The position numbers were made by a program, and so were the translations under genes. A stretch of DNA of 61,556 bases, counting the filler, from Hausera hauseri (Eukaryota), in assembly GCA_046269625.1 (NCBI GenBank). It is 10 parts of 10 records of this genome, joined end to end, with 100 filler letters (N's around TTAATTAATTAA, not from the genome) between each part and the next. Parts side by side here need not be neighbours in the genome. Positions count along the whole stretch, not along the records: positions 8,718 to 13,032 come from JBJURY010639886.1; 9 more parts are not named here. One strand, given 5' to 3'. The notes under the pieces were generated by a model, which saw nothing but the letters and a program-made list of their open reading frames with translations, had not been told where the DNA came from and did not search any database. Shown piece by piece: positions 8,718-55,813 of this stretch. The stretch's first letter is position 1, and every line of letters starts with the position of its first letter.

Positions 8718-8898
8718 TGCTGCATTGTTGGAAGGCTGACATGGTACCAAGCAAGTCTTTCGTAGCCAATTTTATTTGAGATTGTAATTCCCCTGGAATT
8801 CCGTGTTTTTCTATCAAAGCAACATTAGTTCTTGTATCAACCATAGCGTTCAGGTCAAAAGTATCAAAATGGAATGTTGTATGCGGTCGATAGTTCAA
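8718..8898 (-). pseudogene. Retropepsin-like aspartic protease, N-terminal half, cut by the contig end
   Basis: YRPHTTFHFDTFDLNAMVDTRTNVALIE fits the RP.....(10)..ALVDTGA.VSLI pattern; DTG appears as DTR (AGA, one change from GGA). Confidence 0.6.
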
Positions 8899-9584
8899 GG
8901 AACTTTAATACATCATTGTGATCGTATATATGGGGTTCCATCAAGGTGTAGCTGACAGAGCAATGTTAGGTCGTACCGTTAGCTAATATGACTGCTAAAC
9001 TTTCCAGTAATTGTGTATCATTTTCTGACCTTCTGGCTTTATCCTTAAGTTCGGTCAAATCGGGGTAGCAACTTACGTGTTTCAGAGTAGTTTGCTGTTT
9101 ATCATTGGGTTCAAAAGATGAAATATGTGATTTTCTATTCTGTTGTACCTCCATTAATCGGATTATTTGGTGATAAGATACTGGTGGAAGCGTAGCCAGT
9201 TTAGGTGAGACTGCTAATGTTAATCGATTATTTTCCATATTTCGTGTAATAATGGATTGACGTATCTATTCTTGAGAGTATTTTGTTAGGCTACGTAATT
9301 TTGTATAATCTTCTTTTTATGCGTAAGGATCCGTTAAGTCCGTTAGATTAGGTAATTTACAAATGGTCATTATTTTACTTTCATATGGTGCAGCAGGTAA
9401 TTTGTGTTTATCCTTTTTCTTTGATTTCATAAACTTGAATTTTCTCCTCTTATCCTTAGGAATTCATGCTGTGAGATAGCATCCACGGGCATTGTTTTCA
9501 TCAGAACTTGATGATGTATCTTTCGACCATTGCTTGTTTGATTTATAGTCAACATGTTTTTCTAATTTACCTCGCCACTATTTT

Positions 9585-11380
9585 TCATGGTAGGCTTTTG
9601 ATGAATTTATCAAGTGGGAAAAATAGAGCGCCTATTATGCTTAGAGATAATCCTGTTAAGTTGTAAATCTCATAGGCATTTAGTACAGAGTTGATACATA
9701 CTTTCAAAGTTTGTATAATGAAATATATAACCAGAAACCCCGAAGCCACTTGGCCGAATCTCAGGAATCCTCCCCACATTTTATACCATAAATTTGAGAC
9801 AATTTTGTTATAGGCATCAGATGTCCACAACCGATCCGATTTTCCTTCTACTGTATCGTCGATTACTCGGTGTATTCCACGATTTACTATTTGTTCTCTC
9901 TGTCTGGGATATGCTAAAAACTTCACAAAAGAATCAATTTCCTTTTTGCTATATAATGCGGATTTGGATACATCGGTAAACATGTGGGTTTCAATCGCAT
10001 GTTTTAAATTCGTCATGGTTAATTTCTTTGGTTTTTCTTTAACTCTCACGGTCCGGCAATCTAACCCAAAGGTCTCCATTATCATACTTGATAAACGGCT
10101 TATTCAGTGCATAGCAATTCTGAATCTCCGTAGGTATTGTATGGGGTGCCAGGAGCACTCTAGTAATAGGCTGAACGTATCGGGTTTCCTCGTTGTATTT
10201 GACGGGTATTTCAGAGTAACATGGAGTGCCCGTAATTAATGGTAATTCTAGTCGTTTACATTTGTATGTATATAATACTTCTAGGACTCTGCCCTGGATT
10301 CTTTCGCCAAATGGGAGTGTTATTGTGATCATCTCTGGGTTAGATGCATAAATGGCCAAACGATTTCTTAGTTTCGACATTCACTTTGCAAAAATTTTGA
10401 TTTGTCTCAGAGCATATTTCTTCGATTGCTTTATGAGTTAGAATAAAAAGTCATCTCGGTTTGCGATATAATCGGAAATATTCACTAACTGAGCTCTATT
10501 GGTGGGAAAGTTATCTGCGTCTTTAATTTCTTTTTCTGATATAAGATAGTTATTGTAGTTCGTACTGAATACTTGTTGTCCACATTTTATAATCGCATTT
10601 TGTATAAATTTGACTCCTCCTTTGATATCCTTGGATATTACAATCTTAGGAGTTTTTTCTTCCGGAATATCTTGGATATTGGTATGCTCGAAATTAGTCT
10701 CATAGTGGTGGGCATAACGTTTCTCTGTAATTACATTAAATTCTCCTTTTCTTATTTGTACTAAAGTACAATCGTAGCTCGTTCGTGATGTCATAACTAT
10801 CGTAGATGTTATTGTACGGCAGTGTCATGTAACTTACAAAAAGATGCGTCTACCATTGTATTTGTACTAGTCTCGAAGATAGGTATTATCATTAATTTCA
10901 ACCTCGTACTGGTCATGTACTACGATGCCTGCTTCGATACCTTTTCCGGTGTCAAAATTTCCTTCTGTACAGTTTCCTTTTTCATCTTTGTAACCGGAGA
11001 TCCATTTCTCTTGTTGGGTTAATTGTTCTTTTATAGCGGTCAATAAGATGTCTCCCCATTTCAACTGTTGGGTTTCTCCCGCATCTTTACAATATGTAGG
11101 ATTTACTGACATATTTGGGTATGGTAGTTGGCTTAATGTAAGAGTCATGATGCAGATGACCACAGTGAGAAATAGTGCGGGATACGCGTAAGGAACGCTC
11201 CAATCCCCTTATGTGTAACAGTTTTATCATCGAAAATATATAAATTGTGTTTGAGTCTCTAATTTCCTCGGAAGGGCATCCGGGCATGATTGTAGATCCG
11301 TCAATGAGTAGTAGCTAATCAAAGGCTAATATTGTTCCAATCTTCTTAAAATTCGAAAATAACACCAATAGGAGTAACAA
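9585..11380 (-). pseudogene. Chuvirus-like (class III-type) fusion glycoprotein, frameshifted
   Basis: Hydrophobic leader ILLLLLVLFS..ILAFD, then YSLTDLQSCP, PCYSEIPVKYNEETRYVQPITRVL, LYSKKEIDSFVKFLAYPRQRE, WGGFLRFGQVASGFLVIYFIIQTLK..INSVLNAYEIY..GLSLSIIGALF. These match Chuviridae glycoprotein/EVE signatures in order. Confidence 0.82.
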
Positions 11381-11383
11381 AAT

Positions 11384-13032
11384 TTACAAAAATATTCCAC
11401 TGGACTTTGCATCATCACTTTTTTGGATTTCCTCCTGTAATTGACTCGACATTTTCTCCATGACAATGGGGACAATTTCTTCATGAGCTGCATTTTGAGT
11501 AATTTCCTGAATAGCCCTTTCTACAATTGTCTGTTCTATCTCGGATTGCTTTTCGTTTTCGTTTCGTAGAAATAAATCACTCCATTTTCCATATTGTGGG
11601 ATTATTGATTTGCTAGCATGAATTATTTTGCCTGTTGTAGTTTTCAATTCGGTTTCATTAAGTGTCTCGGATATTAATAACAGTATCGCCTTTTCAAAAT
11701 TTACACGAAATGGTTTCTCTAGGATTAGCTGCACGATATCATAAATTGTGAAGTTCTTCCATTGTGAATTTTTCTTAAGGCTCTTCATAAATTTTAATTG
11801 CTCTTTAACTCGTTTTTTCCACTTTGGAGATTGAGGAGTTATTGGATCCTTCCGAACCTCTATATAGTATATTTCTCTAGCTAGTTTCATTACTTCTTTG
11901 TATTCTTTGTACAGTTTTGGGGTTTCATAGTCCATTATTTGAGTAGCAAAGTTCATTTCAATGGTGATCAATTTGTTCGGTTTACTATGTTTGTTAAGAT
12001 TGAGCAACATCCTTCGTACTATAGGCTGTACTATTTCCGCGTTATCTGTATCAATAGTCGGTTTCCCCAAGTTTTCAATTATCGTTTCTTTTAAATATAA
12101 ATAGGCTTGTTTGTATTGAATTCCCATAATAGATTCGTCTTCATGTATACTCTCTCCATTTATTATCTTTCGCATAACGTCTTCTTGAGTTAGTTCGTTT
12201 GTTGACGTAACTTTGACCGCACTAATGTTTGTGGGTACCATTCCAACATTCATTAATAGTTCTTCCGAATCTAAGATTCTATTGTAATATTCTATCCTTA
12301 AATGTTTCATAGTTCTCTTAGTTTGACATTTAATCATTTGTTCAAGGTCTGCGACTCGACTGTCTAGACTCATCTCTAGGTTGGGGAAAATATTTCCATT
12401 GACGACAGGTCGAACTATGATTTTCTGATCTATATAGTCTTTATTACTTAGCAAATATTTTCCTAATAATTTCAATAGCGTTCGTGGTGTAGCATTATGT
12501 CTCCATTTGTCTGCAGCTTTACTAGCTAACTTCTCGGCAGCTTCTAAAATTTCGTGGATATTTCCATCCTTGTTGAGGTATGTCATTAATAAATTATCTA
12601 ACTGCTCAGAAAACTCTTGTAGAGCAATCATTCTCTTGAGTAAAGTTCGTCGGGTCGCTATTCCTTCATCTGTTTCTTCATCTGGAAATTTATCGAAATG
12701 AATTGTATCCAAATCATATTCATTGAAGTCGGTAATATTTATGTCGTCTGCGAAACTGTAATCAGTCGTGTCACAGAGAGCTTCTTGCACTACATTGACT
12801 GGTGCTTGAATTTTCTCTTTACCAATTCTTATATCACCTGGCCTGTATAAACGCATCTTCTTCATAGTAGGTTTTCTTTTGATTTTGGGTGATATTGTTT
12901 CAGTTAGATCGGCAGTATTATTTTCGATTTCTTCTGAGTAGATTACTCTTTTTGCGTGTTGTATCTTATCTGCTTGTTTTTGGGTTGGTCATTCCAATTT
13001 ATTCATTCTTCTTTTAAAATCTGTTTCTTTAT
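11384..13032 (-). CDS. Uncharacterised helical protein (493-aa ORF), in frame with the glycoprotein across one TAA; frame continues to the contig end through one TGA
   Basis: ORF 11384..12865; ...SSGIFL*ILLLLLVLFSNFKKIGTILAFD stays in the same frame. Confidence 0.6.
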
Positions 13033-15540: not shown

Positions 15541-15659
15541 CGTCAATCAGACCAATCATCAAGCTCATCATCAAAATGTTTTAATCAACTCATTCAAGAT
15601 CTCATTTCATCTTATCAAACGCAACAGGAAACTCTATCTCAACTATTAAACACAAACTT

Positions 15660-18352
15660 TTGAGTGCAATGGAAAAGTTATTATATGATGTACAAAACAA
15701 TGTTGAGTCCTCTCTCTTGGCTCTTTGGATTTCACAAACAATCATGGAAGGCCTTTCTAACAGACTGAAAAATGTCGATTATGGAAAGCACTTAATGGCT
15801 GTTGAAGAGCTTCTTAGACAACATGAGTTAATCGCTGCAGATATAAAAGTTATCAATCAAAGACTTGAAAAATTACTTGGTGAATCAGATCAGTATATTC
15901 GATTCGCCGACAAAGATTTTCGAGAAAATACTACTGCAAACAAAGAAATGATGGTCCAAAAAAGACTTGCCACCATTCAGGATTTCAATGCTTTGCTTGA
16001 TATGTCAGAAGAAAGAAAAACCGGTTTGAAACAATCGCAAGCTGCTTGGCAGTATATTGTCGATATTTGTCTTGAAGAACAATGGATCAAAGAACTTTTA
16101 GATATTATGAAAAATCCAGATTGCGGAACGGATCTTAGTTCAACAGACCGAATTTTGAAAAAGCATAAAGCCGTCGAAGCGGAGATAAGCACAAGACGTG
16201 TTGATTTAAAAAACAAGTTGTTAGATGGAAAAAGACTGGCGAATGAATTTCCTATTGGTTTTGATGCCATTATGACAAAGAACATGCAAATACAGCAGCT
16301 ATGGGATGATTTGATTGACAATGCAGAAGCCAGAAAACTAAAACTTCTTGAATTGTTTAATTTCTATCAATTTTTATCCGACAGCGACGACATGGATTCT
16401 TGGATAGATGAGTTCAAACGCTTTTTTGATCTTTCACATCTAGAAGATCGAATGGCTCACACTGAATTACTTATTATTAAGAAACAGCAGAATACGAAAT
16501 TTATTGAAGATAGACGGGAAAATCTTGAACAGTTACGCAGTGAAGCTGAAGCTCTACTAAATTACACATGTTGATCCTAAGAATGTAAATGAAAGATTTG
16601 GAAAAGTTGAGAAGAACTTTCAGAGTCTTGTACAGCTCGCTCATAGAATGCAAGAAAAATTGCTTGACGAGTTAACGGTGTTTCGCCTTTAAAACGATGT
16701 AGATTCTGTTCGATCACGGATTACAGAAAAAGAAAAATTTCTAGTTAATTTTATACCAACTGATGATATTGAAGAACTAGAAGTAATGAAACTTCGGTTT
16801 GAAGTTTTCGATTCTGAATTAACCAAACGTGCAGAGAAAGTTTATCACTTTAATACATAGTCTGAGAACCTGGTTTCAAATGGAAATCCTAGCTACAAGG
16901 TCATAATAAACAATGAAGACAATTTGAACAACACATGGAATAAAATGGCTGATGTTATCGACCTAAAGCAAGAAGAATTGCTTCAGAAATATCATTTCAA
17001 TACATTCTTTTTCGAATGTGAACAAACCGTGGAATGGATGAAGGAGAAAATACAAATCCTAGAGTCTTTGGAGAACACAAATAACGACTTAGAGAGCCTT
17101 ACACATGTTCAAAGACGCATAAACCGTTTACATCGCGATATGTGCGTCATTGAAGCAAAAGTAGACTATTTGGACAGTCAAAGGGAATTGATAATTCGAA
17201 GTAATCTTGGTAGCAAAAAAGAAATCGAGAGTCATTTAGACATTGTTCATGAAAATTGGGATCTATTGAAAAGAATGATTAAAGAACAAGAAACAAATCT
17301 ATGCGGTAAAAGCGGCATTCATCGATTTTTGTTGGACGTTGAAGAATTCCAGACATGGTTAAACCAATTGCAGTCAAAAATGGCTATTCAAATCATTCCT
17401 GAAACGCTTGTCGATGCTGAAAAAGCCATCATGGAATTCAATGCTTATCGAATCGATATTAAAAAACAAGCACCCATATTGGAGAATTTGTTGCATCTTG
17501 GTAAAGATTATCTAAGTCAAGTAGAGAGCCGTGTACAAAGCGAATTGATCCAACAACGTTTAAATGGATTAGAAAAAGGATGGAAAACCCTTCTTGAATT
17601 GGCCGAAGAAAAGGAACGAAAACTTGAGCAGTACATGAATGTTCTAATGGTTTTCGAAGATGCCAAAGAAATTAAAAAATGCTTAATGTTCAAGAAAGCT
17701 TTCTAAACAAAGATATTCGTTCATCAAATCTATTGATTTTTACACGAAGCTGCAAACGATACTGATGAGTTCATACGAAAATTGGAACTTGAAGCAAAAT
17801 TCTTACCAACTGTTTTGGATTTTGGTCATAAATTAATTGCTGAAAACAATTTTCAAAAAGATAAAATCAGTGCTAAATGCCGTTCATTTGAAGACCGATG
17901 GAAAAAGAATTTAGATGTTGCACGACAACGGAAAAACTTTTTAAAGGAACAACTTATTCTTTTTGATTTGTTACAAGATATCGATGACTTGGATGATGCT
18001 CTAATTAAAAAATTAATCTTATCAATCAAATCACGTTTAGCAGTGATAAATCTAAGAGTAATCAATATATTCACTTTAAAGCTTTAGAGGAAGTATATGC
18101 TCAAAAAACAGAGATTCCTCGAACTCAATGAACTTAGCGCAAAAATGATAAAAAATTATCAAAATTTTAAACCGGAAATTGACGGAAGATTGGAAAATTT
18201 AAAATGTACATGGTAAGAAGTTACAAAGGCTCTCGAAAACCGACTGAAGAGCTTCAAGGATGCTGATAGAGATGCCGCATTTAATGAATCGTCACAATCA
18301 GTAATAGATTGGCTACAATCCAGTGAATCACAGATAGTATCCGATGATTACT
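15660..18352 (+). pseudogene. Intronless, disrupted beta-spectrin-like fragment (several spectrin repeats)
   Basis: DYGKHLMAVEELLRQHELIAADI, AWQYIVDICLEEQWIKE, FYQFLSDSDDMDSWI, FFFECEQTVEWMKEK, HRFLLDVEEFQTWL follow beta-spectrin repeat order; stops or frameshifts near 16572, 16690, 16858, 17706, 18087 and 18214. Confidence 0.85.
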
Positions 18353-42984: not shown

Positions 42985-45799
42985 CATTGGCGGTATATTC
43001 ACTCGGAGCATTGGAATAAATGTAGCTTGGCGGTCCTTTAGTCCATGCAGTAGAAGGCTGAATATTGTAGTATTTATCTCGTTTACGATAAAAAGCACCA
43101 CCATTTTCGATTGTAACTATTGCTGGAGTATTGATATTTAACGGAGATCCACCATAGGTTTGATCCTGCGATAAACCTTTGTGCCTCTTTTTGGTTATTC
43201 CGTTTACTACAATAGTTTCAACTTCATAGCAAGCGCCAATTTCAAAATAAGTTTGCTTGGTTTCATCAGCTTCATCCCGGATGGAATAGATCTCAATCCA
43301 GTTGTTTCTTCCTACTGGTGACAGTAATGTTAAGTCAAATGGCGTTCCTGGTAAATACTGGATATAGATTTTATCCCCGGTAGTAGATAATATTTCATAG
43401 TCATACTGAAACTTATAAATCGTACCACCTAACTGCGCCAAAACTCTAAGCCGATCTCCCTTTTTAAAAGTATAACTTATCTCGGCTCCTAAATTAGCAT
43501 TGTTAACGTAGTGGCCAATACTGCTCATATCAATCTCCCAATAAATAGGATTGACTATTGTTTGCACAAATTGATCATTCACTCTGTTTACTTGCGCAGG
43601 GAAGAAGCACAGATAACTCTCTTCGGTAAGATCCGGAGTAATTACAATCTGATATTTAGTAGCCCAACTCGGAGGCTCATGATTTATTTTCAGTTCCAAG
43701 TATGGAACGAAAGCTTGCGTATCTAAGTTAGTAAAAAAGGTATTATCAAACAGATGCGGTATTTCGATAGGTTCTTCCGTAATTACACAAACACCACTCT
43801 TGCGATCAGCATTATCATAATAGACAATACCCACAAATCCTTTGTAACCATACTTAAACCCTCGCTTAGAAATGTATGGAATTGAAGTGTAGAAAAGAGT
43901 GTTTAAAATATCAGTATATTTTACCTCAATAGTCGCATTAGGAACGAGAGAATCATACCCCTCGGTAATTGCTCCCAACCAAATTCTTTCATCAATATAA
44001 GCCATGCTTTCAGCCTTCAATGGCACTGCATGATAGGGTAACAATGCAGTGGAAGTAGCAGCAGCAATGAATAGCTCGTTGCTGAAGTAATTATATTTTC
44101 TACCACTGATTGTCGCAAACTCATGTCGATCAAACTCTGCAATATCTCCCCACGTTACCCCATTATCTTCACTCACAGCCAGGCGTACTTTTTTAATTGT
44201 AGATAAATAATTGATATTATTCAGCCATTTATCATCGAAGTTGACCACTACGAATTTATTGTAAACGGTTTGTAGCAATGGCATTTGACCGATAGCACCA
44301 TACACGCTCTGCTCGTAATCTAAAAAAATGTATCGGCATCTGAATAGTAACGTTTTCGATAGGATGGAATAGTTTATGAAATTTGATACTGTTCCAGTAT
44401 CAAAATCAAACCAGTATGCAAGCGTAGTAGCTCCAAACGTAAAATTGGGGCCATCATCAATATTCACTCTGAACTCGATTTGGCTGGTTGCTAAATTTAA
44501 TGCGCTCCATGATCCACCTTTAACCTCGCACGTACACGCAAATCCGGTTACGATCATTGATATTCTTCCGGTAACTCCGACAGTATAAGAGTTAATGTTA
44601 ACGGTAATATTGAATGTTCCGGCAGCATTAGCCCCTAACGAATGATCATAAATTACCGTTCCATCGCTAAGGGTAAAAGTCAATGTGCTTGGTGGTCCGA
44701 AATTCCATGCAGTAACAATAAACTGAATATTGAAAGTAAAATCAAATTGCTCATTAATAGTAGCATTATAATAATCCAATGGCTGCGGAAAATTACCGGT
44801 TAAATTCCAGTTGGTAGTACCAAGCACAAAATTTTGACCAAGAAAGAAAGCTGCATTACCATCGAAATATGAAGTAGGAGGGCAAAACGGAGGGTATTTA
44901 ATCTGCTTAAATACATCAAGTGTTAGTGGAGGATAACTTACTCCTGCACCTAAAATGTAATCGGCATAGTGGTTTCCCGGAAGAACAATACTTTGGCCGA
45001 TATTCGGATTTGAAGAAGTGCTGACCACGTTTATAAAACACTCGCCCTTATTCAAACTCGTTAAAGTTAGATACTGACCTTTATTTTCATAGGAAAGGTA
45101 AGTAGCAAAATTTATATCCGCATCAAAAGCATTGATAAGATCAGTAACACGATTAGCCATTGTTGTTGCCGAACTGGTAACAGCAATGGTGTAAACCGGT
45201 GCTACGATACCTTGTCTGTATAGATTGATAGTATAAGTAATCGTATCATTTATATCCAGCGGATTAACATACAACTCAAAGGAAAAATTTTTGTTTGTAT
45301 TATTTGCCCTTTTAACGTTGATGCATTTTGGCTCTTCGCTATCATCAGTAATAAAAAATAGGTCGTCAACCAGCTCTATGCCGGTAATTAATTTGTTCTC
45401 ACTGAAATTTAGCGGTGGCGGGTTTTGTGCTGTATAAAGAAAAGGGTATCTTACTTGATAAATTGTTTGTAATTCACCATTAGGAAATTGAGCATTGCTA
45501 AAATAGTATCTGAACACTCCATGATAACCATTTGAATTGTAAACGCAATAGATAATACTATTCCCAATCACATCCTCAAACGTACCAATACATTTATTCT
45601 TTCCATTTTGCAGGAATGGATTAGCAATTAAAACATTCCCTGGCACATCCTCAATAGCTTTAAAATTCTGTCCATCGGTAATTACATTCCGGGCATTAAG
45701 GAGCATCCGATAATTTCCCTTGGGCATAAATCTGCCCTGGGTATCAGAATCCATAACACCTTCAAAAACCTGGACATCCTTTAATGATTGAACTGCCAT
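42985..45799 (-). CDS. crAss-like phage muzzle / tail stabilisation protein (3' truncated)
   Basis: N-terminus FEGVMDSDTQGRFMPKGNYRMLLNARN...AIEDVPGN, LNFS...LITGIELVDDLFFITD...EPKCIN, VPLKA, RIWLGAITEGYD, GIVYYDNADRKS; follows three ring genes. Confidence 0.75.
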
Positions 45800-45804
45800 A
45801 CTGA

Positions 45805-46563
45805 TTATCGTTTAGGTCCGGATAGAGTTGTTGCATACATTGAATCAAGATAATCGCTTACGTTGGGCGCAAATTCGATATAAACACGTTCTCCAAACGC
45901 AGCATTATATAGCCCCATTAATCTTTGCTTTTCCCCTCCATCTACCTTACGATCATAATTCACCAATTGCCAGTGAATGTATGAACGAATTACCTCAACG
46001 TCTTTACCATAAATTAATGTTGCTCCACTTGTTTCTTCATCGGCCACATACTCCATTACTATTTCAGTTGCCGGGATATTGTAGAATTGGAACTGCTTCA
46101 TTTCATGATCCACCCGGAAATATCCAAGCTCGTTGAAGCCTCCACCCATTGAATACATTTCACCAACAAAATATCCGTTTCTATAATGCGAAGCCCAATA
46201 ATACCCATCGGTATATCTGAACGGATCCATTTCAGCAGTGATGGGCGCTGCCACCATTTCAGTTTGCTCTACTCCGCACTCATATCTCCGATTTAAGGGA
46301 ATATCCTTGTTTAAGGTAAGAGTAACCAACTGCCCACCAATATTGATCGCCATTTTAGTGTAATACTCATAATCCTTTGGAAAGGGAGCATTGAGTACAG
46401 CATTGGGAGTAAGGTATGCAACCTTTATATTTTTATTCGTTTTGTAGCGCAAAATATGGCGTAAACAATGAATACCATACTGCAACATCCTACTTTGAGA
46501 ATGAGTAGTAAAGTCCTGCACATCCATTTGCACCAAGCTTATTACATAATTTAGGTTCTTCAT
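45805..46563 (-). CDS. Phage tail ring / head-tail connector protein
   Basis: 252 aa with P.DY..Y.K and IVMEY.AD motifs; directly before the muzzle; 4-nt overlap with the upstream gene. Confidence 0.6.
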   Translation of the reverse strand: MKNLNYVISLVQMDVQDFTTHSQSRMLQYGIHCLRHILRYKTNKNIKVAYLTPNAVLNAPFPKDYEYYTKMAINIGGQLVTLTLNKDIPLNRRYECGVEQTEMVAAPITAEMDPFRYTDGYYWASHYRNGYFVGEMYSMGGGFNELGYFRVDHEMKQFQFYNIPATEIVMEYVADEETSGATLIYGKDVEVIRSYIHWQLVNYDRKVDGGEKQRLMGLYNAAFGERVYIEFAPNVSDYLDSMYATTLSGPKR

Positions 46564-47204
46564 GGAGTATTCGGATTGCTATTGTTAGATACTTTGATCG
46601 GAGTTTGTCTTGTTACGCTCATAATGTTCTGTATCGCAGCCAGGATCTCCAGTGCGCTATCTTCTGAAATCGGAAGATCGTCGTCATTGTTATATCCTGC
46701 AGCGCCACAAACCATTTTAACCATTACGGTTTTCTTGCTATCATAAATTGCTTTTGGCATATCCGGAAAGTAAATATTATCACCTTCCACCAGCGCCATG
46801 TAAACACCATCCGGGAGTGCACTACATTCAAGGTTGCTCAACACCTGGTAGCTGCTGGCATCATTTATTACGAATGTAGGACTTCCATCTTGCACGTTCC
46901 AGCCGATCTCTCTGATCCCTCTGTTATCCTGCAATAGAATCGGTTTTGCCGGAAGCTTAATGCGACATTGACCGCGAATCTGATCATACTTAATTCTAAC
47001 ATTGTAAAATGTTTTGATCCAAGCATTGTCAACGGTAAATGTTCCATTAACCAAATCCTGCTTAACAGCTTTGGCAATAAATGAGTTTATCGCAACATTA
47101 ACGTATTGAGCGATAACGTTGGGATGATATTTTCGATTGTCAGGAGCTGCGCCCCCGGACAAAGAATCAATTACTAATTCAATAAAAGCTTTTTTTGACA
47201 TCAT
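46560..47204 (-). CDS. Phage ring / connector protein
   Basis: 214 aa, N-terminal ...LSGG..PD...; coupled to both neighbours by ATGA overlaps. Confidence 0.55.
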   Translation of the reverse strand: MMSKKAFIELVIDSLSGGAAPDNRKYHPNVIAQYVNVAINSFIAKAVKQDLVNGTFTVDNAWIKTFYNVRIKYDQIRGQCRIKLPAKPILLQDNRGIREIGWNVQDGSPTFVINDASSYQVLSNLECSALPDGVYMALVEGDNIYFPDMPKAIYDSKKTVMVKMVCGAAGYNNDDDLPISEDSALEILAAIQNIMSVTRQTPIKVSNNSNPNTP

Positions 47205-47995
47205 AGCCCACTAGTTTTTATGTATCTACTCCAGTCAACAAGCCCTGGCTCACGAATAGTTATACCAACTCGGTCAAGTATTGTCACAGCCAATTCATCT
47301 ATACAAATTTCCGGCAGCTCGACATCTTGGCTTCCACTTTGCGTATATGTAGGAATACCATTTACATTGGTATAATTCCATACTGGCTTCTTCGGATAAC
47401 GAATGTAAGTCAGCCTTACCGACTTTATATTTTGTGGGTAGAACTGGATCTTGTTGTTATCTTCAAAAATCGCAATTGGATATTCCTTTGTAGGTTTTCT
47501 AAGCTCGCTTCCAATCCAGGCGTATCGTTCGTTGTCAGAAACCACCGTAACCGGAACCCATTGCACCTCGTACATTGTTTTCTTAATGTTGGCTTGGGTA
47601 GTCTGAATCGTTTTACTCTCATCGCAGCACTCTTCTGCTTTTGTATCTTCCTCGGTATTCTCTACAACTTGCACCCAAGATGCTCCAATGCTACTTTTAT
47701 GAAGGTAGTCGGATGGCCTTGAAGCCAGTCCATTTTTATCAACCGTAAGGATTACAGTTGGTTTTAACTGTGAAATATAATCCGTTACCAATTGCGTCAC
47801 CTCCCATGATATTCCCGGGAGTGGCGCACCTGGTTGATATTGCTCCGGAAGTCCGTAGTACTTGCGAACAATCTTGTTCGTCAAAATAGCTACGCTGTCA
47901 TTGAAATCATTAGGGGGTATATAACCTCCGCTAATATCTTTTGCAGCAAGATATTCTACGTACCTCTTTAGTTGATCAATATTAATTATTTGCAT
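47201..47995 (-). CDS. Phage ring / connector protein
   Basis: K...GGYIPPNDFN, P.DYLH, PTKEYPI, YP and YIRYPKKPVW, typical of crAss-like/Flavobacteria phage ring proteins. Confidence 0.65.
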   Translation of the reverse strand: MQIINIDQLKRYVEYLAAKDISGGYIPPNDFNDSVAILTNKIVRKYYGLPEQYQPGAPLPGISWEVTQLVTDYISQLKPTVILTVDKNGLASRPSDYLHKSSIGASWVQVVENTEEDTKAEECCDESKTIQTTQANIKKTMYEVQWVPVTVVSDNERYAWIGSELRKPTKEYPIAIFEDNNKIQFYPQNIKSVRLTYIRYPKKPVWNYTNVNGIPTYTQSGSQDVELPEICIDELAVTILDRVGITIREPGLVDWSRYIKTSGL

Positions 47996-47996
47996 C

Positions 47997-50687
47997 TTAC
48001 AGATTAATTGAACTATACTTTTTAAAGTAGTTGTTGCTTATCTTCTCAACGGTATAGCTGTCACCTACCGCAGTCAACACTTCTGCAGCGGAATCGGAAC
48101 CAAACTGATTTCCTGCAAGCGGAAGCGCAGTAGGAGTAAACGTTACTGTGCCGGCCCCTTGCACCCATCGGAATGAAACCGGAAACTTTTTTAAATTTTT
48201 GATATTGGAGTTTACTACGATTGACGTTACGTTTTGTCCATTACATCCATACAGATAAATCACCCCTGCATGACTAAGCTCAATTGGAATAGTCAAGGTT
48301 CCGGCACTGAAGGCAGTCGCCATATTTAAGAAGCCCCATGCAGCACTAGAGTTATTATTAATACTCACAAAGCCATAATTAGCCCCAAAGGAAGCTAATG
48401 AATTACTTTGAAAGCTTAATGCTGTATTGTTTCCATCAACGGTAACACCATCTATGTCGAACGTGTCAAATGACGTTTGTACGCCAGTCACAGCGGGGAT
48501 TGTAATTGAACTATCAAACAAAATATTGACTACTTGACCATAATTGCCATTCAATCTACCTCTGATAATACTGCCAGCAGTATTCCAATGTACATTATCA
48601 ACCTTACCTTCATTCATAATTTGAAGTTGAGAAACAACGCACGATGAAGCTGGTAGGGCCGGATAGTTATTGTTCTCGCAATTTTGAATATACCCATTTA
48701 ACAATTTATTAAATGTGGCAGCCATCCCAATATTTGAAATGATTGTGCCCATCTCAAAGCTGTTACCGGAAATATTGCAATTTTGGTTTAAAGTAATCAA
48801 ATTGTTTACGGTTAACCCAATCCAGTTTTTAGATCCCGAATTAGTATCAATTGTGCAATCAGTATTCCCTTGTATATTAACATACCCTTGATTGTTGGTA
48901 ATATCGGAGGTAGTATTTGTACTAATTATACTGTCCTGCATATTGTTCGAGCTAAAGGCGGCACCAGTATTAGATGAAGTTGCGCAATTAACAAGAAAAT
49001 TATTTTCAACAGTATTATATTCATCACCAATACTACTTGTTTTTATAAAAACGTTGTTTTGTAAAAATCCTCCAGTCGGAATAGTATTGGCCCACGAAGT
49101 ATTATTTGTAAAGCTATTATTGATACACGTACCTGCTTGATTGGCCAAGTAAGCAACAGATCCATCAACATTGTTATCGGTACAAGTATTATTTCCCCAC
49201 TGAAAATAATCCATAGCATTTACCCCCGAAGAAGTAAAGTTTTCAAACGATTGATTTACCACATTGTTTCGCCTATCTTTTCTACAAGAAATATGGTTGT
49301 TGCCTAAATCGTAGAGAATAAAATCAATTTCACGAACATAGCGCGAATCATTAAAGCTAACAAGTGTCCAATTTGTTGCATCGCTATCGGGATCAGTGCC
49401 CACAGCTCCGGTGACACTCGAGTACATTTTTCCATTGAAAGCATATAACTTATTTATCGTTGGAACTCCCATTGTTGCGTACCATGTTCCACCATAATCA
49501 CCGGAAACATTATTGTAATCCGGATTAATAGCAAGATATTGGCCACTCAAACTAACAGCGTTGGTCTTTGTTCCGGTAAGCAATATCCCTCCTACTCCTA
49601 CATCAGTTACGAAATAGGTTTGACCAATTTCAATGGCGCTGCTTGTTACCAACGTAAGCAAAGCTGCTCTGGTCAACGAAACAATACCGGTTCCAGTAAC
49701 GCTCCTTGACACCTCTACAAATATTCCTCCCAAAACAGCATCGAAAGTATACCGAAGCAAAATTGCTTTGTTGTTCTGCAATATAAAATTGTTTTGATCG
49801 GTAAGATAAATATTTGGCGATGGAGTTACAGAGGCGTTTGCTGCGTCTTTAACCGTTAAAGCTTGTGCGGTGGAAGTGCTCTTAATTAATAATAAATCTC
49901 CATCAACAAATTTTGTAGCATTAATGTACTCTAAGCTGTCCGTAGCAGCGCCCCCCTGGTTGGTGGTGGTTAATTGCGTAATGGCGCAAAATCTCTCTAC
50001 TGAATTGATCGCATCCGTAGAAATAGTAGCTTCGATCGTTCCTACTCCGGTTTGAAAGCCTCGCATAACCATGTACTCTGTAATCTCAACAGAGTTGGTT
50101 AAACTTGTAGGGATAGCTGGTGAACCTCCACTAACTCCGTTAGCATCATAATCAGCATTAAGGAAAAATCTTCTTCCAATTACTGAATCATAAACACCAC
50201 CTTCGCTCGATCCATACGCAAACGCAGTTGTCGTAGCCACCAATGCTCCACCGGTTGCGCTGTATGATACAGCATAGCCATTTGATGCAGCTCCAAAGCT
50301 TGCCGGGGTGAAAATGTAAACAAAATCCCCTTGCGCACTCGCTACGCAATCCGGACCCGATGCCGGGGTAAATGCATTAATCGCTGCTGCAATTAAAATC
50401 GCTGCTGCGCTATTGCTTGCCGACACAATGGGGATGTTTGCCCCAATTTGGTTTACGCCATTCACATTAACTGCTGTAACGTTTCCGGTAGCTGCTGCAG
50501 TGGTAACTTGCAGTATTCCATACGCAGCTCTTTTTGCCGCGAAGGGAGAAACAACAGTACCAAGATCACGCATATTGCGTACACCCGAAGGTGAATTGGG
50601 TTGGGTGCTAATGATAGTTGTACCATCAAGAGCAGTCATGTAAACATAGCCAAGATTGTTTGCTATGTCTTGTATTCCTTTTGCCAT
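47997..50687 (-). CDS. Fibre/spike-like virion protein with an Asn-rich beta-helix region
   Basis: 896 aa; A..IAAAINA, DGDLLLIK and LT...LLTLV.....GQTYFVTD motifs followed by N/S/T/G-rich short repeats. Confidence 0.6.
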   Translation of the reverse strand: MAKGIQDIANNLGYVYMTALDGTTIISTQPNSPSGVRNMRDLGTVVSPFAAKRAAYGILQVTTAAATGNVTAVNVNGVNQIGANIPIVSASNSAAAILIAAAINAFTPASGPDCVASAQGDFVYIFTPASFGAASNGYAVSYSATGGALVATTTAFAYGSSEGGVYDSVIGRRFFLNADYDANGVSGGSPAIPTSLTNSVEITEYMVMRGFQTGVGTIEATISTDAINSVERFCAITQLTTTNQGGAATDSLEYINATKFVDGDLLLIKSTSTAQALTVKDAANASVTPSPNIYLTDQNNFILQNNKAILLRYTFDAVLGGIFVEVSRSVTGTGIVSLTRAALLTLVTSSAIEIGQTYFVTDVGVGGILLTGTKTNAVSLSGQYLAINPDYNNVSGDYGGTWYATMGVPTINKLYAFNGKMYSSVTGAVGTDPDSDATNWTLVSFNDSRYVREIDFILYDLGNNHISCRKDRRNNVVNQSFENFTSSGVNAMDYFQWGNNTCTDNNVDGSVAYLANQAGTCINNSFTNNTSWANTIPTGGFLQNNVFIKTSSIGDEYNTVENNFLVNCATSSNTGAAFSSNNMQDSIISTNTTSDITNNQGYVNIQGNTDCTIDTNSGSKNWIGLTVNNLITLNQNCNISGNSFEMGTIISNIGMAATFNKLLNGYIQNCENNNYPALPASSCVVSQLQIMNEGKVDNVHWNTAGSIIRGRLNGNYGQVVNILFDSSITIPAVTGVQTSFDTFDIDGVTVDGNNTALSFQSNSLASFGANYGFVSINNNSSAAWGFLNMATAFSAGTLTIPIELSHAGVIYLYGCNGQNVTSIVVNSNIKNLKKFPVSFRWVQGAGTVTFTPTALPLAGNQFGSDSAAEVLTAVGDSYTVEKISNNYFKKYSSINL

Positions 50688-52315
50688 TACGATTCGATGT
50701 TAATGTTTAAAGCTAAATATAATACGTTACTTCCAAGCAACTGATAAAGATCAGCTAGTGTCCAGGGCTGTCCGGTTTGAGGGTTGTAGAAACGAACAGT
50801 GAGCGCCCCGGTTGCACTTGCCGGATCGAACCAAAATACTTCTGCTTCAAGATCCTTTAAGTCGTTCGGTACGCCTTCGTTTGCATTATGAACTCTCATG
50901 ATGTTCGCAGTTGCAATGTAGGTTTTTGCGCTCGTCAAGAAATTTCTGAATGACATTAATGCAATATCAGTGCTCACGTTAGGTACAGATTGTCCTAATG
51001 TAGAGCCAAAGTTTGCCGGAGCTTCTGTATCAACTCCTTTTGAGTAAACTGTGGTAGGGGTTAACTGCATATAAGCAATACCCGGACCGCTATTTAAGTA
51101 AGCAATCCGATACTGCATCTGAATGATCTGATTGGTATGAATCAGTCCACCAGTCCATGAAACAGTGTATGTTATCGGATTGGTGCCGGTAGCCACCACT
51201 TGAATAGGCGATGTTCCTGCTACTTGTACTACTTGAATATTGTTGATCGCATTTTGCAATGCTGCACTCACTTGCAGCGAGAACGTTGTAGTATTACCTA
51301 CAACACTGGTCACAATGGCTACGCTGTTATCCGGAGAGTTTAATACGTAAGTAATGTTGTTGCTGTTTCCTCCACTCGCTGTAGCTTGAACAATGCTAAT
51401 ATCATCATTGCAATCGCAGTCACCACCGCATCCGCTATACTTTATTAAGCTGTCGTAAGCTTCTGCAGCCTTTGTTTCGTTACCGGCAAAAGAAGCTGCC
51501 AAGAACATAACCAGGTATCTCCATGATGGTCCAATTACATTTTTAGCGTAAAGCTCTGCCTTACTTGGCGAAGAGCATAAATACGATTCATAATTTTTAT
51601 TGATCTGTGATAAGCAGCACAGAGCTTTGCTTAAAGATGTGTCGCACGTTACTGCGAAATTCTTCACTCCCGAAGGCTGCATGATAACAATTAATCCATC
51701 GGTTTGTAAATACGTAATATCCGTAATTACTTCCGCTTGCCAATTTGTTGTGTAGATTGGCGAATAAATGATTGTAGCTAAATTAGCAGTCAGAGAGGGT
51801 TGGCGCGAAGCTGGAGGGGGATATAGTGTGTGCGCCCGGGTTAAACTCGTAATGGTAGCATACTGTTGCACATAATCAGTAATGTCGGTGCTCTGCGCTG
51901 AACTCAATGAACAATTCACCTTTGTATCAATGCAAATAGTGATGTCTTGAATCAAAAAGTTAAAGTTGAATGATTGCGTAATATCTAAATCAGTTACGCC
52001 ATCAGAAGCAAGCACTCTGTACGTGAGTGTATAATTGCCTCTCAAAACATTCCCATCTGCATCGGTAGGAAGATTGATTGGATTTACATTTGATGTTCCG
52101 TTGGAAATAATGATGTCAGGGCCATTACCACCACTCAAATTATCGTAAACACTAAAAGTAGAGGCAGATAATTCGCACTCCAGTTTAATAAATCCGGTAA
52201 TTGTATAGGTGTTGGGATCAACGCCCTGGCCAGCATAATCAGTGTTATCAACGATTCCTATCAACCCACTCACAAGGTTGAAGGTCATTTGAGGGGTTAG
52301 TGTAGTAAGTGGCAT
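50687..52315 (-). CDS. Putative virion structural protein (542 aa) with a Cys cluster
   Basis: Beta-rich N-terminus, CCL and CGGDCDC, S.D.SV.I fibre-like motifs; located in the structural operon. Confidence 0.55.
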   Translation of the reverse strand: MPLTTLTPQMTFNLVSGLIGIVDNTDYAGQGVDPNTYTITGFIKLECELSASTFSVYDNLSGGNGPDIIISNGTSNVNPINLPTDADGNVLRGNYTLTYRVLASDGVTDLDITQSFNFNFLIQDITICIDTKVNCSLSSAQSTDITDYVQQYATITSLTRAHTLYPPPASRQPSLTANLATIIYSPIYTTNWQAEVITDITYLQTDGLIVIMQPSGVKNFAVTCDTSLSKALCCLSQINKNYESYLCSSPSKAELYAKNVIGPSWRYLVMFLAASFAGNETKAAEAYDSLIKYSGCGGDCDCNDDISIVQATASGGNSNNITYVLNSPDNSVAIVTSVVGNTTTFSLQVSAALQNAINNIQVVQVAGTSPIQVVATGTNPITYTVSWTGGLIHTNQIIQMQYRIAYLNSGPGIAYMQLTPTTVYSKGVDTEAPANFGSTLGQSVPNVSTDIALMSFRNFLTSAKTYIATANIMRVHNANEGVPNDLKDLEAEVFWFDPASATGALTVRFYNPQTGQPWTLADLYQLLGSNVLYLALNINIES

Positions 52316-52341
52316 TTCGATAATTTTATGGGTGAAATTTA

Positions 52342-52377
52342 ATAAAAAAAGGAACTATCAGATAGCTCCTTTTTTAT
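52342..52377 (-). terminator. Rho-independent terminator (potentially bidirectional)
   Basis: ATAAAAAAAGGAACTATC-A-GATAGCTCCTTTTTTAT hairpin with A and T tracts, downstream of the gene ending at 52403. Confidence 0.75.
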
Positions 52378-52402
52378 GATTTATTTGCATTTTGGCTGTT
52401 GA

Positions 52403-53332
52403 TTATGATTTGCCAAGAAGCTCTTGAATTTTGTTGGCTTTTTCCTTCAAAGCTTTAAAAACCTCGTGCTGTCGATCAAATCTATTAAACCAGTCGGCCA
52501 GCGCCTTGTCGTGATCTGCATTTGTCGGGATTCGCATGATAACCTTTCCAAGATTGGCACCATCGGCTTCAACCCAATCATTATTTACAACCTTCACCAG
52601 TCCTACCTCTTTAAAGCGGCTTACCTCTTTAATGAAGTCGATCTGCTTGCTGCTCACAATATCTTTGATTGCCACCGGATAAGTAGATCCTAATCGTGCC
52701 AGCTCAACTCTTAAATCATCGGCTGTCATTTCCTCAATGTTATGAAGCTTGTGCGCAATACGGTAATCGTTAGCTGAACGCACCACCATTTCAGCGTATG
52801 CCTTCAAATCAGCTTCACCGGTTTTCTGCTTATCGAAGAATTTCTGCGTTAACTCCGCAGTAATTTTAAGCTGCTCTGCCAGCGTATCGCGATTCTTCTC
52901 CTTGCGATACGTTGCAAAATAGGTTTCTCCCTTTTCTTTCCAGTTTGGATGCTCCGGATCTTCCATCACAACCTCGTTGGCGGGATGATTGTCTAAAAAG
53001 AAATTCAGCTCGGGATCAGTCGAAGTGATGTAACCCTGGTACGGAAGTGAAATACGTGCAGGGCTGTAATCATCCCTTTTCGTATCTTGATTGTAAACCT
53101 TGCTCTCATAGTACACCAGCTTGCCCAATCGTTTACGCACCGTACTTGCCAGTTCGTAATGCTGATATTCCGGGTTAATGTGGACTGGAGCCACTTCAAC
53201 CGGTTTCAAATCCGGATCTAACAGATTTATTTTGATGTACTGCTTTCCAACGCGAAAAACCATTTTCGTGCTGTACTTTTTCAATTGAGCTGTTGATAGC
53301 TGAAAGGGTTTACCCTCTAATTCTAGTGCCAT
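52403..53332 (-). CDS. Post-capsid phage protein (309 aa; start MALELEG)
   Basis: ATG at 53332 follows an A-rich leader; FL..HP.N motif; the longer track start runs through the MCP 3' hairpin. Confidence 0.7.
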   Translation of the reverse strand: MALELEGKPFQLSTAQLKKYSTKMVFRVGKQYIKINLLDPDLKPVEVAPVHINPEYQHYELASTVRKRLGKLVYYESKVYNQDTKRDDYSPARISLPYQGYITSTDPELNFFLDNHPANEVVMEDPEHPNWKEKGETYFATYRKEKNRDTLAEQLKITAELTQKFFDKQKTGEADLKAYAEMVVRSANDYRIAHKLHNIEEMTADDLRVELARLGSTYPVAIKDIVSSKQIDFIKEVSRFKEVGLVKVVNNDWVEADGANLGKVIMRIPTNADHDKALADWFNRFDRQHEVFKALKEKANKIQELLGKS

Positions 53333-53359
53333 AAGATTTTTTTTAGTTATAATGTGAAT

Positions 53360-53387
53360 AAGGGGATCAGAATTACCCAATCCCCTT
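53360..53387 (-). terminator. Hairpin after the major capsid gene (leaky terminator or mRNA stabiliser)
   Basis: AAGGGGAT...ATCCCCTT stem with a weak U tract. Confidence 0.5.
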
Positions 53388-53404
53388 TTGATTAATAACC
53401 ACAA

Positions 53405-54835
53405 TTATGCAAACAAACGCATCATCTGATTTCCTCCGCAATGCTCTGCACCGAAGTCAGAACGCATACAGAGTTTGTTTACGTCACGACTGGTAACCTT
53501 GATTCCAGGACCAGCGCCAAGTAAACTGAACACCTCTGTTTTGCGACTGTAACCACCCAATGCACGATAAGTCATACCCATGTAAGGGATCTTATTGTTC
53601 GGGTTGTTCTTGTCCGGCTTAGAAGCAAGAGGCCAAAACAATCCAAGCTTGGAAGTGTTGTAGCCAGCAGCTCCCCACATTTTTGCCATGTTGAATTGTG
53701 GCATACGTGTGAAGCACCATGTACGGTAGCCTTTTTGAAGGTAGCGGAAATTTACCGCCATCGACAAGCCTGGATTGTCACCAAAAAGATCCGCTTGCGC
53801 TCTCTCTCTTTGATAATCCTGCATTGTGTTTTGGAAGTAAGCTTTTAACACATTGTCCTTCTCATTGTCAAGGTCGGTTCCTAAGAAACCGCCCATCCAT
53901 GCTGGCGCACCTTCCTGCTCCAACAATTTATCCATATAGTCAAACAATGGAATTGAGAAGGTTCCCGGTACATAAGGAATGTTCTGACCTTTACGTTTGA
54001 TGTAAGGATCAATACCTTCGGTAGTTTGGATCGGCTCGTTGGTGTCCGGATCAACAATGCTGATCTCAGTTAATGCACCAAAGAGAAGCGCTGCGTCAAT
54101 CGAAAGAGCATGCTCGTACTCGGTATTTTCCTGCCCTACGATGTAGTAAGCCGGAATACCTTTGCCATCGCTGTACTCTTTGAACCAAGGCTGTGTAACA
54201 GCTTGTGATCCAGTATGCTTGAACGTGCTTTTCACGATCTGCGTGTAAGAGTAGTCGATCAATGGCTTGTTTACAATACCATCGTTTTGATCGGATCCTT
54301 CGGAGAAGGCATTGCCGGTGATGATCAGCTCAACACCCGATACATAATTTGCAAGGGTGAACGGTCCTACCGTTGGGTTCATGTGCTTCAAAGTCAAAGT
54401 ACAAGTAGATCCAACAATGGAAATACCGGTAATCAAAAGCTTTGCGTTATTCTCCGGCAGGGTGATAATATCCCACTGCTTTACCGGGAATACATACTGG
54501 CCGGAAGTGTTGTATGGAGAAGTAACGTTGGTTTCCAAATAGTCAAGGTTTCCGGCAGTAGTACTTAATTGAAAAGTGTACTCATTAGGATTACCCGTTG
54601 CGGTCATGCTGTTGCCAAGATGGATCGTATTATGAATCCAGTCCTCTTCATATTGGCGTGATTTATTCTGCGTGATCGGTCGGGAATACCCAAGCGATTC
54701 AAGGATTGCGAAGAAATTCATGCCCTGGTTACCACGAATACGGAAGAGTTGGGCGCGTACTTCGGGTTTGTCAATATCGAATGTGGTGATTATCTTGCTC
54801 GCGTCAAGTGTAACTGCACCAGTAGTATTACTCAT
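53405..54835 (-). CDS. Major capsid protein, crAss-like / Bacteroidota phage type
   Basis: 476 aa; GNAFSEGS, YTQIVK, IDAALLFG, TEGI..YI..RKG, F.YL.KG..TW, SDFG...GGN; follows a scaffold-like gene. Confidence 0.8.
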   Translation of the reverse strand: MSNTTGAVTLDASKIITTFDIDKPEVRAQLFRIRGNQGMNFFAILESLGYSRPITQNKSRQYEEDWIHNTIHLGNSMTATGNPNEYTFQLSTTAGNLDYLETNVTSPYNTSGQYVFPVKQWDIITLPENNAKLLITGISIVGSTCTLTLKHMNPTVGPFTLANYVSGVELIITGNAFSEGSDQNDGIVNKPLIDYSYTQIVKSTFKHTGSQAVTQPWFKEYSDGKGIPAYYIVGQENTEYEHALSIDAALLFGALTEISIVDPDTNEPIQTTEGIDPYIKRKGQNIPYVPGTFSIPLFDYMDKLLEQEGAPAWMGGFLGTDLDNEKDNVLKAYFQNTMQDYQRERAQADLFGDNPGLSMAVNFRYLQKGYRTWCFTRMPQFNMAKMWGAAGYNTSKLGLFWPLASKPDKNNPNNKIPYMGMTYRALGGYSRKTEVFSLLGAGPGIKVTSRDVNKLCMRSDFGAEHCGGNQMMRLFA

Positions 54836-54864
54836 TGTTTAGTAAGTGTTAGTAGGTTAAACTA

Positions 54865-55813
54865 TTAATTTTGTAGTTTGATCCCTCTTTGTAAAGCCAA
54901 GAATTCGGCAACACCTTGCTTTGGATCGGGGATCGGGGTCGGGGCTGCTCCCAATCTTGGATTATGCTTTTGTTGAGCATCGGCAGCTTTTTGGCTGTCA
55001 ATCATCGTATCAATGATGTTCGACATTTCAAGTACCATAAGCTCCTTTCTAACTATGGAACGTGCAAATTCCAAGCCTTCTTCATTCGGCATGGCTTCTA
55101 CAAGTCCACTAGAAATGACCTCTTTAAGCATTGTTTCTGCTTTAGCCATGTTCTCCGGGCTAATAACAAATTCATACTTACCGGTCTTTCCTTCAACAGC
55201 CAAGTTTTTAAACTCTGCCATGACTTGCGGTAAAGCCGGTTCCCAAGCTCTCGTTTGGGCTTCAATCATTCTTTCTTTTGGCGGTGTCAACTGTTCCGCT
55301 TTGTAGCCGGACAGAAAATCTTTCGCCTCGGTGCTGTGAAGTTTGGCATTTATTCTCGCAAGTTTCACTTCCGCATTGTTTTCATCTTCGTTTTCGCCAA
55401 AACGATAAGTTGAATCAATCAGAAATTCAGCTTCTTCTTGCGACAACTTATCCTTGAACATAGCTCGTAGGACAAGCGCCTCCCTTTCATTAATTGTGGC
55501 CATGTCCAGATTGGCGACCTGCTCATAAACCTTTGGATCGATACCATCTTGTATTGCCTTGTTCAATCCCTTTACGTAATCATTCACGAAAGGATCTACT
55601 GGCTTTGCATTGGCCTTTTCCTCTAATTGGGTTACATGATCAACCAGTGCCGTAGTATTTGTGAAGCGACCTCCTAAAATCCCTTTAAGGTAGGTTTCTT
55701 CTACTGTTGGTGCTGGTGGATCTCCCGAAGCTGGTGCACCACCCGGATCTCCGCCTGAAGTGGGTGGTGCTGGAGGTTGAGGCTCTGCAGGGCTTGGGTT
55801 TCCCGGTTGCGCG
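54865..55813 (-). CDS. Scaffold-like protein (5' truncated, Pro-rich N-terminal region)
   Basis: Frame is open upstream of the track start to the contig end (AQPGNPSPAEPQPPAPP...); acidic and helical; directly before MCP. Confidence 0.65.

Follow-up and report, generated by a model that had tools for sequence, protein, structure and literature searches.

One reading frame from Gag through a predicted chuvirus-type glycoprotein to integrase and beyond in a decayed retroelement family of the Hausera hauseri assembly

The locus and its features

The window analyzed here is a stretch of 61,556 nucleotides, filler included, from the Hausera hauseri genome assembly GCA_046269625.1, in which unrelated contigs are joined with N spacers. 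One of them, contig C (positions 8718-13032, JBJURY010639886.1), is present as an entire contig and is read on the minus strand. We found that contig C is the middle of a decayed copy of a long terminal repeat (LTR) retroelement. Six-frame translation agrees with a preliminary description of it as one decayed minus-strand open reading frame (ORF), in which a 493-amino-acid (aa) piece continues through a TAA codon into the leader of a glycoprotein. The features are as follows.

11384..13032, minus strand: pre-envelope part of the polyprotein (end of a coiled coil, acidic linker, helical stretch, ubiquitin-like domain, helical domain); 534 aa stop-free from 12988; ratio of nonsynonymous to synonymous substitution rates (dN/dS) 0.13-0.34
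12200..12430, minus strand: likely ubiquitin-like domain; weak Pfam, PDB and ESM-Atlas matches and a profile of relatives
11560..11850, minus strand: conserved helical domain, in the slot of a Bcl-2-like domain in the planarian element Burro and three relatives; dN/dS 0.13
11318..11400, minus strand: internal hydrophobic signal-like leader of the glycoprotein, interrupted by TAA; translation, and a hydropathy peak in the natural ORF of copy L015
9590..11330, minus strand: fusion glycoprotein (PF24664) with several frame changes and stops; Pfam; dN/dS 0.07-0.20
9681..9752, minus strand: predicted main transmembrane stretch of the glycoprotein; the sole 19-residue window over threshold in the natural ORF of copy L053
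8895..9590, minus strand: basic cytoplasmic tail and linker to the protease, with four point stops; dN/dS 0.20
8718..8895, minus strand: N-terminal half of a retroviral-type aspartyl protease, cut by the contig end; RVP in paralogues, motif degenerate in contig C

The first stop-to-stop frame is 534 aa long (11384-12988, minus strand; 493 aa counted from its ATG) in the six-frame translation and ORF list, and it ends at an in-frame TAA (11384-11386) that is followed by the hydrophobic leader. All 19 other copies of the family that were compared here have a sense codon in place of this TAA. Likewise, the codon at 12989 is a stop in none of 13 other copies, and the frame continues upstream to Gag, so the 493-aa piece is not a protein start. 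At the other end, the translation follows the basic tail, as originally described, through point stops at 9464, 9317, 9266 and 8966 (sense in 27/28, 27/29, 30/30 and 32/34 other copies) into the ORF ending at 8966, and a final frame change near 8895 leads to a protease-like motif at the end of the contig.

The TAA, the frame change near 9600, the tail stops and the last shift had been described correctly, and the glycoprotein is more broken than had been stated. Set against the natural stop-free ORFs of other copies, contig C has net frame changes near 11110, 10040, 9600 and 8895, and short out-of-frame stretches near 11320, 10880-10820 and 10440-10380. Five stops in contig C at first looked common to most copies. 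They fall where contig C is off the family frame, and are therefore not programmed. By approximate counting, dN/dS between contig C and other copies is 0.07-0.34 in 10 of 10 in-frame stretches. This purifying selection, present in every stretch tested, means that the open frame is not a product of chance.

A single frame across the family

A DNA search of the assembly itself returned 1,949 candidates, 40 of which were scored (78-87% identity). Among 145 distinct loci, 59 other copies align with contig C for 300 bp or more (median identity 80%, range 74-88%), and paralogues are colinear with it along all 4.3 kb. One paralogue, L022, is 79% identical across the whole of contig C and extends a further 3.8 kb, and a Pfam scan finds in it, in this order, PF24664, RVP, RT_RNaseH, Integrase_H2C2 and rve. 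Reverse transcriptase (RT), which had been predicted to lie beyond the contig end, is found there in L022, with RNase H and integrase, after the protease; RVT_1 was found in copies L126 and L134. Upstream paralogues carry coiled coils, Retrotrans_gag (E = 3.1e-4) and zf-CCHC (E = 2.5e-5). Canonical motifs survive in 28 of 36 copies for the protease, 7 of 12 for RT and 15 of 22 for the CCHC knuckle. Across copies, the frame reads Gag (with CCHC), coiled coils, ubiquitin-like domain, helical domain, PF24664, protease, RT, RNase H, integrase and a second membrane module.

Natural ORFs join these parts. A 453-aa ORF (L053:534-1892) contains the end of the glycoprotein (PF24664) together with RVP, and another (L015:3-833) contains the end of the 534-aa region together with the start of PF24664. 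Of the 26 landmark junctions between Gag and the C-terminus, 23 are each bridged by a stop-free ORF in one copy or more, and three long-gap junctions close with finer landmarks, for which the denominators are undercounts. The junction between the transmembrane stretch of the envelope glycoprotein (env) and its tail is spanned in 8 of 20 copies, and that between the tail and the protease in 15 of 29. Across every junction tested, one frame links Gag, the accessory domains, the glycoprotein, protease, RT, RNase H, integrase and the second membrane module. The earlier proposal that env lies upstream of the protease in a single polyprotein is therefore confirmed, both by these natural ORFs and by five unbroken database proteins described below. 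The alternative that it named, separate ORFs arising from nested insertions, is not borne out, as env and protease share a single natural ORF.

The overlap offsets between copies sum to ~14.6 kb, or ~4,860 codons, and we estimate the whole element at ~16 kb. All copies of the family that we examined are decayed. Several properties of the data count against the one-frame map. Some junctions are spanned rarely (helical domain to env in 2/14 copies, RNase H to integrase in 1/13), and copies that donated a landmark count by construction in the junction tests. Moreover, the longest contig among the loci examined is 8,115 bp and no single copy spans the element, so that the map is assembled from overlapping copies of subfamilies that are 70-88% alike.

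The fusion glycoprotein

PF24664 (Monjiviricetes fusion glycoprotein) matches two pieces of contig C (E = 1.5e-10 and 5.2e-23) and is the only significant Pfam family there. In a 459-aa natural paralogue ORF the match reaches E = 1.3e-40 and covers profile positions 66-486 and 494-631 of 653. The main transmembrane helix is followed by a second, weaker hydrophobic helix. By these profile matches, we identify the glycoprotein as a predicted env of the glycoprotein B (gB)/chuvirus type, lying between Gag and RVP.

A word-seeded protein search ('longer' mode) with the envelope gave one protein, and a HMMER search gave polyproteins; a PDB sequence search found no match. The best matches in the protein library are long polyprotein chains (E = 1e-56), and the nearest database relatives are ~30% identical; distant relatives are 22-31% identical. 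Five of the matching proteins (P0002, P0009, P0013, P0017 and P0151) are unbroken database entries with env, protease, RT, RNase H and integrase in one chain, and P0019 has the order CCHC, ubiquitin, Bcl-2, env. Named chuvirus glycoproteins (P0021, P0023 and P0025) are also among the matches, at E = 4e-24 to 6e-19. We built a FastTree phylogeny of 50 rows, comprising the best 45 of 118 full-length ectodomains (69 were omitted), all long chains and the query. In it, the contig C envelope falls on a long branch at the base of the polyprotein-embedded group (Shimodaira-Hasegawa-like (SH-like) support 93), apart from the three named chuvirus glycoproteins. The label 'chuvirus-like' in the preliminary description thus holds at the level of the Pfam family, and the closer grouping is with polyprotein-embedded envelopes.

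Could this be a recent insertion of a chuvirus glycoprotein into a gypsy element, or a set of nested elements, with the continuity of the frame an accident? Chuvirus glycoprotein fossils often adjoin gypsy fragments (PMC10084718), and the named chuvirus glycoproteins among our matches would fit such an origin. Against it, both junctions of the glycoprotein are in frame in natural ORFs, paralogues remain colinear over 4.3 kb, and both the best matches and the tree join the query to polyprotein-embedded envelopes. The natural ORF that holds env and protease together refutes an insertion in effect, and we regard it as very improbable.

Two observations concern the database relatives. In P0151, P0004, P0009 and P0003, env is followed by several aspartyl-protease domains in tandem (up to seven matched stretches, in P0151); these relatives also have C2H2 fingers and ankyrin repeats. 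The NCBI entry for P0002, a hypothetical protein, is assigned to a bacterial metagenome-assembled genome and is probably animal DNA in a bacterial bin.

The protease, pol and the module after integrase

The protease half in contig C has no Pfam match and its active-site motif is degenerate, so the retropepsin assignment rests on the paralogues, where RVP matches at E = 5.8e-7 and 2.1e-5. On that footing, the retropepsin of the preliminary description stands. Among solved structures, the best match of the RT piece is to the RT of yeast Ty3 (E = 5.5e-24), with those of foamy virus and murine leukemia virus ranking behind it, in a database (PDB) that may contain no BEL RT. By the order of pol, the profile matches (RT_RNaseH_2, Integrase_H2C2 and rve) and the nearest solved RT, we assign the element to the Ty3/gypsy type.

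The BEL/Pao context suggested at first does not hold, the nearest context being Ty3/gypsy. A BEL/Pao element of the Anakin type that had captured a chuvirus glycoprotein would show the same order of protease, RT, RNase H and integrase, and this glycoprotein family has also been found next to BEL/Pao elements (PMC13524379). The families matched here are Retrotrans_gag, RVP, RT_RNaseH_2, Integrase_H2C2 and rve; Pfam scans of the family's ORFs found no Pao peptidase or BEL gag family, and the nearest solved RT, with the reservation about the PDB just given, is that of Ty3. We therefore give a BEL/Pao origin very little credence.

A conserved stretch of ~100 aa lies between the protease and RT. 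After integrase, the frame contains a hydrophobic leader, ~400 cysteine-bearing aa and a strong transmembrane stretch, and then, beyond one more hydrophobic stretch, runs on for several hundred residues.

L125:2550-4276 (minus strand), L127:204-2155 and L135:3038-5934: post-integrase membrane module and long C-terminal region, in frame

No informative Pfam family was found for this region in the scanned ORFs. It is conceivable, though we think it unlikely, that the module is another surface protein of the virion, so that a fusogen of the gB type would precede pol and a distinct attachment protein would follow it. One polyprotein would then give a two-glycoprotein particle with a herpesvirus-like division of labor, which for a retroelement is described neither in section 7 of PMC6431247 nor in the parts of PMC13524379 on which we draw.

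The pre-envelope region

The 493-aa ORF that had been described as an unknown domain exists, and it is a stretch of a longer pre-envelope region, not one domain. Within that region, 12200-12430 is likely a ubiquitin-like domain. The Pfam ubiquitin family matches it at E = 0.049 in contig C and at E = 0.0094 in the best member, with matches in 3 of 20 members, and PDB entry 2DAF matches it at E = 0.085, second of six weak matches. In the ESM-Atlas, all five named sets among those listed are ubiquitin families (0.76-0.77, lead level). Finally, a profile of the same slot in four relatives, built from segments picked by eye, ranks it first of 5,395 ORF pieces (best E = 2.5e-5). These four lines are weak and partly dependent, and none reaches a curated cut-off.

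Three relatives, P0006, P0019 and P0003, have weak Bcl-2 matches in the slot just before env (E = 0.001, 0.055 and 0.2), the slot that the helical domain 11560-11850 occupies here. The ESM Atlas gave no usable match for this domain. AlphaFold models of the pre-envelope region were poor (predicted local distance difference test (pLDDT) scores 54.5 and 50.4), and Foldseek searches with these models at pLDDT 50-55 returned nothing at E <= 0.001; we treat a Bcl-xL row at E = 5.7 as noise. Comparing profiles with P0019 gave no significant result, and residues 170-520 of the 534-aa region have no homologue among proteins of 293-935 aa. In copy L122, an internal deletion (L122:4172-4173) places the helical domain that precedes env directly after the early coiled-coil region.

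LTR ends and tandem-like copies

The search for LTRs succeeded in part. An LTR-end motif occurs exactly 61 times, compared with 0 for the reversed control. Behind it, a primer-binding-site (PBS)-like 12-mer, which we take to be of the tRNA-Lys type, is present at 12 of the 29 loci examined, 9 of which have gag downstream; the remaining 17 have unrelated sequence or the contig end behind the motif. A left LTR end, paired LTRs and target-site duplications were not found among the loci examined. We also considered a long LTR enclosing the end of the ORF and rejected it: there is no left boundary within the coding region, and two LTR-end loci lack that coding region upstream.

In L121:1-2500 (G000:C185861), L158 and L145, the ORF end, LTR, PBS and gag lie in one contig, like tandem copies sharing one LTR. 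This layout is seen in three of the five PBS-bearing copies with long upstream sequence and is missing from L122 and L192. It may reflect real tandem arrays or assembly joins through the LTR. Most copies have a purine-rich tract directly after the PBS-like site, which in L121 is near-identical to a polypurine-tract-like tract ~750 bp upstream (1585-1605, 2341-2375). The LTR ends are A/T-rich, not CA. In L190-L218, the upstream (U3) part of the LTR is very different between copies, and the last 350 bp are common.

The host and the mixed assembly

Which animal carried the element? The assembly holds at least seven animal COX1 types, some of which we label snail, vertebrate and arthropod from motifs, as well as molluscan hemocyanin exons (20 matches). 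This mixture means that the host can only be inferred, and it weighs against any confident choice. In a 14-kb mitochondrial contig, three conserved asparagine positions are encoded by AAA, as in the flatworm/echinoderm code. A diverged copy of this contig, 88% identical, bears stops, and two more pieces are 85-86% identical to that copy, as nuclear copies would give. A snail was our first reading, from the hemocyanin exons. It was downgraded on the observed-to-expected CpG ratio, which is 0.22-0.43 in six hemocyanin contigs versus 0.93 in copies of the element, where there is little excess CpG decay. A spectrin in a window contig that neighbors contig C is only 34% identical to land-snail spectrin. 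A search for arthropod cuticle sequences gave no match anywhere, and its controls gave none either. We think that a flatworm is probably the host; the snail of the assembly and some other animal are each unlikely, and about equally so.

Other contigs of the window bear on its composition. Long, intron-poor, very divergent spectrin-like ORFs lie between gypsy fragments at 15585-17706 (best match 59%, named animal spectrins 23-34%). A phage-like contig with virion-type genes (42985-55813, ORF list by eye) is a sign of the mixed assembly. By eye, we also noted a GC-rich contig (31835-37376) whose ORFs include a Gag-like one, one for a Ser/Arg-rich repeat protein and some that resemble genes of large DNA viruses, and a mariner-like transposase fragment in the contig adjoining contig C (7960-8331).

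A proposed mechanism

Taken together, we consider it likely that contig C is a dead copy of a one-frame Ty3/gypsy family whose active ancestors formed enveloped particles, probably in a flatworm. A chain of ~4,860 residues would be threaded co-translationally into the endoplasmic reticulum. Gag and the ubiquitin-like and helical domains would remain cytosolic, and the internal leader, to be cut by signal peptidase, would direct the glycoprotein ectodomain into the lumen. One transmembrane helix would then bring the chain back to the cytosol, where the protease, RT, RNase H and integrase must act. The second, weaker hydrophobic helix should not cross the membrane, since the enzymes would otherwise be lumenal. 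Past integrase, a second leader would open a further lumenal domain, and the cytosolic parts would be cut loose by the protease of the element. Capsid, envelope and enzymes would be made one-to-one and would at first be anchored in one common membrane; this would link assembly with budding and yield an enveloped particle. For the ubiquitin-like and helical domains, we predict a role as accessory cargo that modulates the host.

Besides the limits of the map and of the host assignment, further points tell against this proposal. Enveloped particles, expression and fusion are all read here from genes alone. A search of sequencing runs listed no RNA run containing the element, and one coded run with 0.29 of the query words, which weighs in neither direction. 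Profile searches for Bcl-2 at 11560-11850 gave no match, and a dUTPase-like domain between protease and RT was sought with a 20-copy profile that had no PDB match; no Pfam match was found there either.

Budding retroviruses make far more Gag than Pol, and the fixed one-to-one Gag:Pol output of a single frame differs from this. The same layout might therefore have served without infectious extracellular particles, with a glycoprotein that anchors assembly or moves capsids between neighboring cells or compartments of one animal. The section of PMC6431247 on Burro likewise reports no particles and calls the provirus reading a hypothesis. Against such a role, the whole ectodomain is strongly constrained (dN/dS 0.07-0.20), covers the greater part of the fusion-protein profile and persists in distant relatives at 22-31% identity. 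We regard it as a minority possibility, though a less remote one than an insertion or a BEL/Pao origin, and continue to favor enveloped particles.

Comparison with known elements

Env upstream of the protease in one polyprotein had been thought unreported, and this does not hold. The giant gypsy-like LTR retrotransposons of planarians, Burro/GYPSM1, carry env in frame between gag and pol in one polyprotein (Arkhipova and Yushenova 2019, PMC6431247). Burro elements exceed 30 kb, and the Burro1 ORF encodes 4,873 aa. Knockdown of smedwi-2 leads to transcription of BURRO1. As in Burro, the family here has one ORF (~4,860 codons), Gag with CCHC, Smc-like coiled coils, a ubiquitin/SUMO-like domain (weakly supported here), a mononegavirus-like env in frame, the order protease, RT, RNase H, integrase, further cargo domains and a probable flatworm host (PMC6431247). 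Unlike Burro, the element is estimated at ~16 kb and shows one CCHC instead of two or three. The Bcl-2 and dUTPase-like domains of Burro were not detected, though both slots are filled, and its MATH, BIR and ankyrin cargo had no Pfam matches in the scanned ORFs, which cover most of the frame. The signal-plus-transmembrane module after integrase goes unmentioned in section 7 of PMC6431247. As the element misses the size and cargo of Burro, we call it no more than Burro-like, by analogy with the published description.

Errantiviruses with the order GAG-ENV-POL and an HSV/gB-type ENV (HSV, herpes simplex virus) are known from Nematoda, Bryozoa and Platyhelminthes, and chuvirus-like glycoproteins have been reported next to gypsy pol (Chary and Hayashi, eLife, PMC13524379). 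With its Ty3/gypsy pol and a chuvirus/gB-type env placed before pol, the element belongs by sequence to this GAG-ENV-POL gypsy class. The terms 'single ORF', 'polyprotein', 'fused' and 'Burro' do not occur in the main text of PMC13524379, so in-frame fusion is not addressed there. In supplementary file 1 of that paper, the 45 mollusc rows considered, of 46, all have F-type env. A mollusc host would therefore be new for gB-type env, and, if the snail were the host after all, gB-type gag-env-pol elements would extend to molluscs. Our searches of papers for Burro-like elements in molluscs found nothing further. The BEL/Pao elements called Anakin are, like this family, LTR elements carrying the same glycoprotein family (Dezordi 2020, as cited in PMC13524379). 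They belong to another superfamily; the glycoprotein here lies within the gag-pol frame and groups apart from named chuviruses.

The layout is thus already published, in Burro and, as GAG-ENV-POL, in errantiviruses (PMC6431247, PMC13524379), and the family described here is a further, compact lineage. As all its copies are dead, it is a comparative data point and not a model system. It adds a divergent member, with an envelope ~30% identical to its nearest relatives, to the small class in which capsid, fusogen and enzymes would be made as one membrane-threaded chain. Within this class, a ubiquitin-like slot before env appears common to distant members, and the family here carries further membrane cargo after integrase.

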